Shown here one piece after another: positions 3,457 through 3,799 of a stretch of DNA of 4,471 nucleotides (positions are counted from its first letter, which is position 1; every line of letters starts with the position of its first letter). The DNA lies in IMG/VR virus record IMGVR_UViG_2703718812_000015. One strand, given 5' to 3'. Origin of the DNA: a virus. Lineage: Duplodnaviria > Heunggongvirae > Uroviricota > Caudoviricetes. The notes below the pieces were generated by a model. That model had not been told where the DNA came from, searched no databases, and saw nothing but the letters and a program-made list of their open reading frames with translations. A program made the position numbers and the translations under genes.

Positions 3457-3540
3457 CGAATTTCTCCCGTGTACAGGAACAGAGTTAAAAAGCCGGAACC
3501 GGAATCAAATCACAGGATGACCATCTGCCAGTGGCTGGTC

Positions 3541-3569
3541 GTAAAAAAAAGGCCGCGCCATGCGCAGCC
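3541..3569 (-). terminator. Rho-independent terminator acting on minus-strand transcripts, about 90 bp upstream of the nanS-p start codon
   Basis: Minus-strand RNA 5'-GGCUGCGC-AUG-GCGCGGCC-3' (7-8 bp GC-rich stem including one G.U pair) followed directly by U8 (3550-3543). On the plus strand the A-run precedes the hairpin, so the element is unidirectional. Confidence 0.65.
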
Positions 3570-3743
3570 GGAAATAAAGGGATAACGATGATAGTTTGAG
3601 AAAAACAGAAATAACACTTTTGTGGCAAAGCATGGTGCCGGGTGCCTCCCGGTGAATTCAGTACCAGCACCTGAATCCGCGATTATCCCATATACCTGGT
3701 TGCTGATTGCCCCTCCGCACAGGGGGATTCACCATGCAGTAGT

Positions 3744-3774
3744 ATTTTTAATAAACAGTAAACAAAAAAATCAA
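3744..3774 (-). promoter_or_regulatory. Candidate late-promoter (lambda PR'-like) element: TTGATT, 18-bp spacer, TAAAAA
   Basis: On the minus strand, TTGATT at 3774-3769 and TAAAAA at 3750-3745, which resembles my recollection of lambda PR' (TTGACT / TAAATT). The predicted start near 3738 lies about 195 nt upstream of the end of the U-run of the 3541-3569 terminator. Sequence pattern only. Confidence 0.25.
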
Positions 3775-3799
3775 GCATTATGCAGGCTGTTTCTTTTTA

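Follow-up and report, generated by a model that had tools for sequence, protein, structure and literature searches.

A predicted STnc100/PasD-family small RNA gene upstream of nanS-p in a degraded lambdoid prophage of Escherichia coli

The minus strand of the region immediately upstream of nanS-p (positions 3457-3799 of the 4,471-nucleotide stretch analysed here, hereafter the window) very probably carries, at 3774-3543, a complete and self-contained gene for a structured small RNA (sRNA) of about 195 nt that belongs to the STnc100/PasD family. As predicted from the sequence, this RNA combines a core of the STnc100 type with ends of the PasD type and a U-rich tail of about 60 nt of its own. 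The element as such is already known, since it belongs to a curated and repeatedly reported sRNA family with a known place in the late region of lambdoid phages. The conserved four-helix RNA between a promoter and a terminator is the main feature of the region, and it was missed in the preliminary description, in which the promoter and the terminator were taken for the late promoter PR' and its terminator tR', and the region for the slot of a missing toxin cargo. The coordinates of all features are listed in Table 1.

Table 1. Features of the region upstream of nanS-p and of its surroundings (window coordinates unless another source is named)
Feature	Position	Strand	Remarks
Predicted 195-nt STnc100/PasD sRNA	3543..3737	-	ends placed by homology to PasD2
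-35 hexamer of the putative sRNA promoter (sigma-70 type)	3769..3774	-	TTGATT; TTG invariant in 7 homologous loci
-10 hexamer of the putative sRNA promoter	3745..3750	-	TAAAAA, 18 nt after the -35 hexamer
Structured four-helix core	3630..3737	-	consensus fold; first 108 nt
P1 closing helix	3737-3730 with 3637-3630	-	GCAUGGUG with CACCAUGC
P2 hairpin	3725-3710	-	CCCCU...AGGGG; variable stretch 3' of P2
P3 hairpin	3678-3654	-	8 bp, 3678-3671 with 3661-3654, one G-U
P4 hairpin	3652-3638	-	CCGGG-AGGCA-CCCGG (CCGGGAGGCACCCGG)
U-rich tail, about 60 nt	3570..3629	-	predicted mostly unpaired
Intrinsic terminator of the sRNA	3543..3569	-	GGCUGCGC-AUG-GCGCGGCC, stem 3569-3551, then U8 3550-3543
nanS-p leader	3457..3542	-	Shine-Dalgarno GGGAG 3468-3464, ATG at 3456
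nanS-p (sialate O-acetylesterase)	1483..3456	-	DUF1737, SASA and DUF6645 domains
tciB (DUF3927)	3800..3937	-	cargo in moron slot
terB/tciA pseudogene	3934..4296	-	rest of moron slot; internal TAG at about 4230-4228
tR' candidate	4429..4453	-	hairpin ACCCGUCGCCAGGCGGGU, then U7; inside the window
Lambda-like PR' (-35, -10, pause motif)	4528-4489 (window-equivalent)		outside the window
Array or multicopy loci of STnc100-like genes	L017 6368-7006; L020 2832-3213; L031 1915-2301; L023; L015/L038; L014 3114-4490		other sources

The window was 100% identical to positions 1224026-1228496 of the chromosome of E. coli 2011C-4251 (NZ_CP027388.1), where it forms part of a degraded, Qin-like lambdoid prophage at ydfJ. 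All window genes are carried on the minus strand, and the gene order on this strand is RusA, Q, the terB/tciA pseudogene, tciB/DUF3927, the region 3457-3799 and nanS-p, followed 3' of nanS-p by DUF1378, DUF826, a class II holin gene and a YdfR fragment cut by IS3. The lysis and structural genes were removed by the IS3 insertion. The interval between nanS-p and the holin gene is filled by the DUF1378 and DUF826 genes; PasA/PasC was considered for this interval and discarded, as no match to a PasA probe was obtained at up to 3 mismatches. Two repeats were noticed elsewhere in the window. An exact 61-nt direct repeat (27-87 and 285-345, 258 nt apart) lies in the YdfR-family region beside IS3, where two YdfR fragments are annotated in some otherwise identical genomes, and nanS-p contains, in its 5' part, an exact 36-bp tandem duplication (3228-3299), by which PGTGDVTTPVVV is repeated in the protein between DUF1737 and SASA.

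The assignment to the family was made with covariance models. A full-length match to the Rfam model of STnc100 (RF02076, model positions 1-206) was obtained at 3763-3597 on the minus strand with 101.6 bits (E = 3.9e-22), above the curated gathering score of 47 bits, and a covariance model built from five phage copies gave 123.6 bits for the window copy. All four helices of the consensus fold, P1 to P4, form in the window sequence, with P1 enclosing P2, P3 and P4; the short hairpin at 3654-3661/3671-3678 that had been recorded previously is present with its 8 bp and corresponds to P3. When the core was folded alone, the minimum-energy structure consisted of P1, P3 and P4. For the full RNA, the family fold lay 2.7 kcal/mol above the minimum-energy fold, which is a different structure, and the single-sequence folding energy was unremarkable (z = -1.5 against shuffled sequences).

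The model was searched in 44 sources, including 37 loci from a scan of one genome per species, and 63 matches were found in Escherichia, Klebsiella, Raoultella, Citrobacter, Kosakonia, Pantoea, Superficieibacter and others. Among 59 distinct sequences from at least 15 genera, 93% of the cells were paired, compared with 43-51% when the pairing partners were slid, and compensatory changes were found in 16 of 28 pairs (7 of the 8 in P3), compared with 4-8 pairs in the slid controls; the alignment was fitted to the model, so that these pairing counts are biased towards the modelled structure. Genes neighbouring the matches in other genera included those for Q proteins and TerB upstream and for phage lysozymes and holins downstream, and at loci with identifiable neighbours the core was located between Q/PR'/tR' and the lysis genes, in the same orientation and sometimes in tandem. 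Within E. coli, the 343-bp region 3457-3799 was matched in 2846 of 5426 complete genomes, at up to 13 places per genome and at seven in the source genome. A copy covering at least 80% of the 343 bp was present in 646 genomes, and the 343 bp recur at an identity of at least 96.5% in diverse strains.

The family is multi-copy in genomes of the EHEC type. Eleven STnc100 copies were reported in EDL933, most of them with transcriptome reads, and STnc100_4 was detected by Northern blot (PMC5331693). STnc100 overlaps EcOnc27/sRNA103 (PMC12711010), and EcOnc27 was bound by Hfq in a Hfq-CRAC experiment (PMC4104026). PasD and STnc100 were linked as structural homologues in a 2026 preprint (10.64898/2026.05.13.724894).

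Several additional features of the survey were recorded. Superficieibacter prophages contain tandem arrays of STnc100-like genes, about 257 nt from start to start, some arrays are flanked by a Q gene and a lysozyme gene, and a Pantoea plasmid carries four copies. Copies of the enterobacterial-phage type were also found on short contigs filed as Xanthomonas pisi (L043, 888 bp), a Mucilaginibacter MAG (L021) and a Proteobacteria MAG (L022); upstream of its copy, L043 does not differ from the Stx2a phage WGPS2. These contigs with non-enterobacterial names are likely to represent contamination.

The promoter candidate TTGATT-N18-TAAAAA proposed earlier is present on the minus strand exactly where it had been placed (3774-3745). 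It matches the consensus at 8 of 12 positions and is devoid of T at -7, and taken alone it is no better than chance. A consensus promoter scan of the window reported neither this promoter nor the PR' region described below, because each matches at just 8 of 12 positions; therefore, both promoters were called from homology and from the conservation of their position, not from the strength of the consensus match. The TTG of the -35 element and the pattern T.TTA.AA at the -10 element were invariant across seven phage and prophage loci, with the flanks otherwise differing. An extended -10 element, TGnTA(A/G)AA(A/G), was found in three of the seven (JLK-2012, BP-4795 and WGPS2), and the TG extension is absent from the window copy. 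Furthermore, promoter-like matches at a constant spacing from the RNA core and its P1 helix were enriched among 55 family members: the mean score of the match was 7.96 compared with 6.84 in shuffled sequences, and a score of at least 9 of 12 was reached by 31% of the members compared with 5% in the shuffles. By this comparison across sequences, and only by it, the sRNA promoter becomes credible.

At the other end, the strong hairpin followed by U8 that had been noted at 3541-3569 was found with its stem at 3569-3551 and its T8 run at 3550-3543. The stem has 8 bp, seven of them G-C, and a loop of 3 nt (-14.3 kcal/mol), and it was the top-ranked of 12 terminator-like sites in the window, where shuffled sequences gave 4.2 ± 2.2. 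It is homologous to the terminator of PasD2 and to the second of the terminators downstream of stx1 in phage BP-4795. Between the promoter and the terminator, the preliminary description had found no open reading frame of protein character, no tRNA and no stx in the 340 bp; consistent with this, the longest minus-strand ORF had no Pfam match, no tRNA or tmRNA was found in the region 3457-3799, and no stx was annotated in the records matching the window.

The ends of the transcript were predicted from PasD2 of EPEC E2348/69 (NC_011601, 741157-741328, 172 nt), which is supported by Northern blot and RNA-seq (PMC8550237 Table S6) and also by Hfq RIL-seq. PasD2 and the window element share their place between DUF3927/tciB and an esterase gene, and their promoter regions, terminators and nanS-p leaders are nearly identical. 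According to a pairwise alignment with the window, the PasD2 promoter reads TTGACT-18-TAAAAA. As mapped, PasD2 begins with the G of GCATGGTG, which follows the equivalent -10 hexamer by 7-8 nt and aligns to position 3737 of the window, and it ends with the final T of the T8 run, which aligns to position 3543. Thus, an RNA of 195 nt is predicted for the window, and the terminated transcript of about 195 nt proposed earlier was right in its length. For the window copy itself, expression from this start to this end is a prediction by homology.

The core and the tail, in contrast to the ends, set the window RNA apart from PasD. PasD (E2348/69, 434 and 2B8) is without P4 and has a different variable region, it scored just 28 bits with our own covariance model and it is under the Rfam threshold; P4 is present in the window core, which is thus not of the PasD type, and a length of 195 nt is predicted for the window RNA compared with about 172 nt for PasD. 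PasD is an abundant RNA that was detected by Northern blot and by RIL-seq on Hfq, and its stability is Hfq-dependent according to the authors (PMC8550237); the homologue of PasD1/PasD2 in EHEC is EcOnc13. The seed of PasD is UGUGAG (PMC8550237 Fig. S5), located immediately 5' of the terminator stem. In the window, it is replaced by CCCUUUAUUUCC and a 13-nt insertion, and the sequence at this place reads UAUCCCUUUAUUUCC. As the seed is absent, targets are not transferable from PasD.

The P1-P4 core and the full-length model match are shared with STnc100 of EHEC (EcOnc27/sRNA103 and related RNAs), as are the orientation, which is that of the late operon, and the location, with cargo (stx, tciB) on one side and nanS-p or the lysis genes on the other. 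In the Stx phages BP-4795 and WGPS2, however, STnc100 is terminated about 45 nt past the core. The Stx-phage copies have a convergent anti-sRNA, AsxR or AgvB, as their partner, whereas the window copy is without one: no match to AgvB (RF02702) or AsxR (RF02703) was obtained in the window at E<=1. A match to asX2 on the plus strand (E = 0.09) was rejected, being merely the terminator hairpin read on the opposite strand. In most family copies, the terminator lies 27-80 nt after the core, usually at 30-55 nt; in the window, the distance is 77 nt and the proximal terminator is missing, which accounts for the unusual tail of 60 nt. JLK-2012, Evi and the window are alike in having neither the proximal terminator nor an anti-sRNA and in extending to the distal terminator shared with PasD, a single-terminator layout that is also that of PasD2. 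The tail (3629-3570) is a candidate for the seed and Hfq-binding region. As a separate observation, BP-4795 has a convergent AgvB-like anti-sRNA (L005 4189-4248, minus strand), which exceeds the threshold only slightly at 56.6 bits and is located between the two terminators that follow stx1; the whole of this segment is missing from the window.

Comparison with Stx phages also moved the cargo slot. The sRNA gene is shared with these phages, in which it is downstream of stxB. In BP-4795 (Stx1), stx1B ends at L005 3895 and STnc100 spans 3974-4187, and in WGPS2 (Stx2a), stx2B ends at L006 3914 and STnc100 spans 3989-4204; the end of stxB is thus 75-80 nt upstream of the sRNA gene in both, and a distance of 75 nt from stx2 to STnc100 downstream of it has been published (PMC12370729). 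In JLK-2012 and Evi, the sRNA gene follows tciB, and in Evi the holin gene comes next, without nanS-p. Because stxAB stands upstream of the same sRNA gene in Stx phages, the slot also lies upstream, and the toxin-cargo slot that had been seen in 3457-3799 is by this sequence comparison assigned to 3800-4430, filled by the decayed terB/tciA and by tciB. The region 3457-3799 itself is then the conserved downstream border of the slot. This arrangement has counterparts in the literature: convergent Hfq-bound sRNAs were described between a moron CDS and a conserved downstream ORF in at least 8 Sakai prophages (PMC4104026, PMC7873438), and EcOnc27/sRNA103 and STnc100 copies were placed at the same position (PMC12711010, PMC5331693). 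An intact terB/tciA gene of 143 aa is present in phages JLK-2012 and Evi. With regard to tRNA genes, three or four are present between Q and the cargo in Evi, JLK-2012 and the Stx2a phage WGPS2, and none were seen in this interval here (window 4297-4471 and L001 13297-13533).

The antiterminator gene was correctly reported as absent from the window. Upon upstream extension, a Q gene (273 aa; Pfam PF03589, 168 bits) was found with its stop codon at window-equivalent position 4534, 63 bp beyond the window. The decayed TerB-like gene that had been described upstream is real (the terB/tciA pseudogene at 3934-4296), but it does not stand there instead of Q, as had been supposed. Within 40 nt after the Q stop, the sequence reads TTGATT-16-TGgTAAATT-tgccct-AACGATGGG, which aligns with the -10 hexamer of lambda PR' (TAAATT) and with the sigma-dependent pause motif AACGATGGG. 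About 40-60 nt downstream of this lambda-like PR', a hairpin at 4453-4429 (-12.5 kcal/mol, z = -2.7) is probably the true tR'. At four loci from other genera with a Q of the same type, Q, a promoter-like site and a short terminator were likewise followed, 100-150 nt further on, by an STnc100-like gene with its own promoter. On the evidence of these arrangements, the Q-PR'-tR' unit and the STnc100-like gene are read as two separate units.

The following course of transcription is proposed. The sigma-70-type promoter TTGATT-18-TAAAAA would start the sRNA at about 3737, and the transcript would consist, in this order, of the four-helix core (108 nt), the U-rich tail of about 60 nt and the terminator at 3569-3543, the last of which would give the RNA a 3' end of hairpin and poly-U, as is typical of sRNAs that bind Hfq. 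In the repressed lysogen, the sRNA would be made alone from its own promoter and, by analogy with PasD, EcOnc27 and sRNA103, may act in trans through Hfq on mRNAs of the host and of its islands. After induction, polymerase modified by Q would proceed from PR' through tR', terB'/tciB, the sRNA gene and its terminator and would continue into nanS-p and the holin gene. The insertion site of the cargo, stxAB in Stx phages or terB/tciB here, is bounded by tR', with or without tRNAs, on one side and by the sRNA gene on the other. As in the lambda PR'-tR' unit, Q-modified polymerase would have to read through the terminator of the sRNA. A dependence of nanS-p on such read-through at 3569-3543 is plausible and fits induction by mitomycin C, after which nanS-p was increased by 1-2.4 logs in Stx2a lysogens (PMC10462455).

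The reading given in the preliminary description, by which 3774-3745 is the Q-dependent PR', 3569-3543 serves as tR', the 195-nt RNA corresponds to the lambda 6S RNA and the region is an empty toxin slot, has in its favour that promoter, terminator and transcript length are on the scale of the lambda PR'-tR' unit and that the region is upstream of nanS-p and the lysis genes. The short terminated transcripts of that unit (6S RNA) and of Stx phages (StxS) are indeed of similar length and are also made upstream of lysis genes. Nevertheless, we consider this reading very improbable. Between the Q stop and the promoter downstream of it there are about 760 bp with the two cargo genes terB' and tciB, whereas a much better candidate for PR', with the lambda -10 hexamer, AACGATGGG and a terminator of its own, is located directly after Q; no pause motif of the lambda type (AACGAT) follows the hexamer at 3745-3750; both units stand side by side in other genera; RNAs homologous to the predicted one, unlike the lambda transcript, are expressed in uninduced lysogens (PMC8550237, PMC5331693); and stx is located upstream of the sRNA element in Stx phages, not within it. 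The promoter and terminator are therefore better described as the sRNA's own, and the transcript, although right in length for a 6S-like RNA, is of a different kind. Even less probable is that the region encodes a small protein, either in the longest ORF of its minus strand (61 aa, 3485-3670) or as an equivalent of the 'putative membrane protein' of phage 434 or of ORF42 of BP-4795. Some phage records do contain such CDSs, and ribosome footprints were seen on some STnc100 copies of EDL933 (PMC5331693), but the 61-aa ORF has no Pfam match, its GTG start lies inside P3 and it crosses the terminator, so that there would be no stop codon within the terminated RNA. In addition, the frame is broken by indels of 1, 2, 8 and 13 nt in homologues, and what is conserved is paired helices with compensatory changes. 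CDSs annotated over the sRNA gene include CPT_434_70 of phage 434 (L002 4592-4780), ORF42 of BP-4795 (L005 4046-4273) and a PGAP pseudo CDS on the plus strand of the window (3433-3576). Because of the RNA structure, the internal terminator and the frame-breaking indels between homologues, the short CDSs annotated across the sRNA gene are probably spurious.

The remaining alternatives accept the sRNA gene and differ in what it does. That the window copy is an inactive relic would agree with the absence of the BP-4795 segment carrying the proximal terminator and the AgvB-like anti-sRNA, with the absence of the PasD seed, and with a prophage that is truncated by IS3 and contains a terB pseudogene. 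On the other hand, the promoter motifs, the four helices and the terminator are all intact, the 343 bp are maintained in diverse strains and genomes at the identity and coverage given above, PasD2 is highly expressed with the same single-terminator layout, and an STnc100 copy of EDL933 with the UAUGGGAUA motif, STnc100_10, is transcribed (PMC5331693), its tie to the window copy being the shared motif only. We accordingly regard a relic as improbable; selection on the window copy is uncertain, the prophage being degraded. Somewhat more weight, though still on the unlikely side, is given to a dual role, in which the gene would produce the sRNA and, by its promoter and leaky termination at 3569-3543, also a basal Q-independent expression of nanS-p in lysogens, while its terminator would stop transcripts of the upstream cargo (terB/tciB here, stx elsewhere) and so insulate the late genes. 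In every case the gene directly precedes nanS-p or lysis genes and has their orientation, the 86-nt stretch from the terminator to the ATG of nanS-p is highly conserved (the leader is about 97% identical to the equivalent stretch of E2348/69, 434 and 2B8), uninduced cultures contain detectable nanS-p transcripts (PMC10462455), and the insulation part would fit the alternative already offered in the preliminary description, by which a moron unit has its 3' end at this terminator. Against this, the terminator appears strong (7 G-C and U8), so that read-through should be low, and the basal nanS-p signal could stem from a subpopulation induced spontaneously.

Since the core covaries across at least 15 enterobacterial genera and is found between Q/PR'/tR' and the lysis genes, one may also imagine that it is a cis-acting module of the late transcript, engaged in processing, stability or protein binding and affecting nanS-p and the lysis genes. 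Little probability is attached to this idea. If it were true, the free sRNA would be a secondary product, and the hybrid window copy, with its STnc100 core, PasD-type ends and new tail, would be a natural test variant.

With the sRNA gene as the preferred interpretation, the annotation of the prophage would change: its late promoter and terminator are placed beside Q, and 3800-4430 is identified as the real cargo slot. The targets of the window sRNA probably differ from those of PasD and EcOnc27, and owing to its unique tail the window copy could be followed apart from the six other matching places in the same genome.
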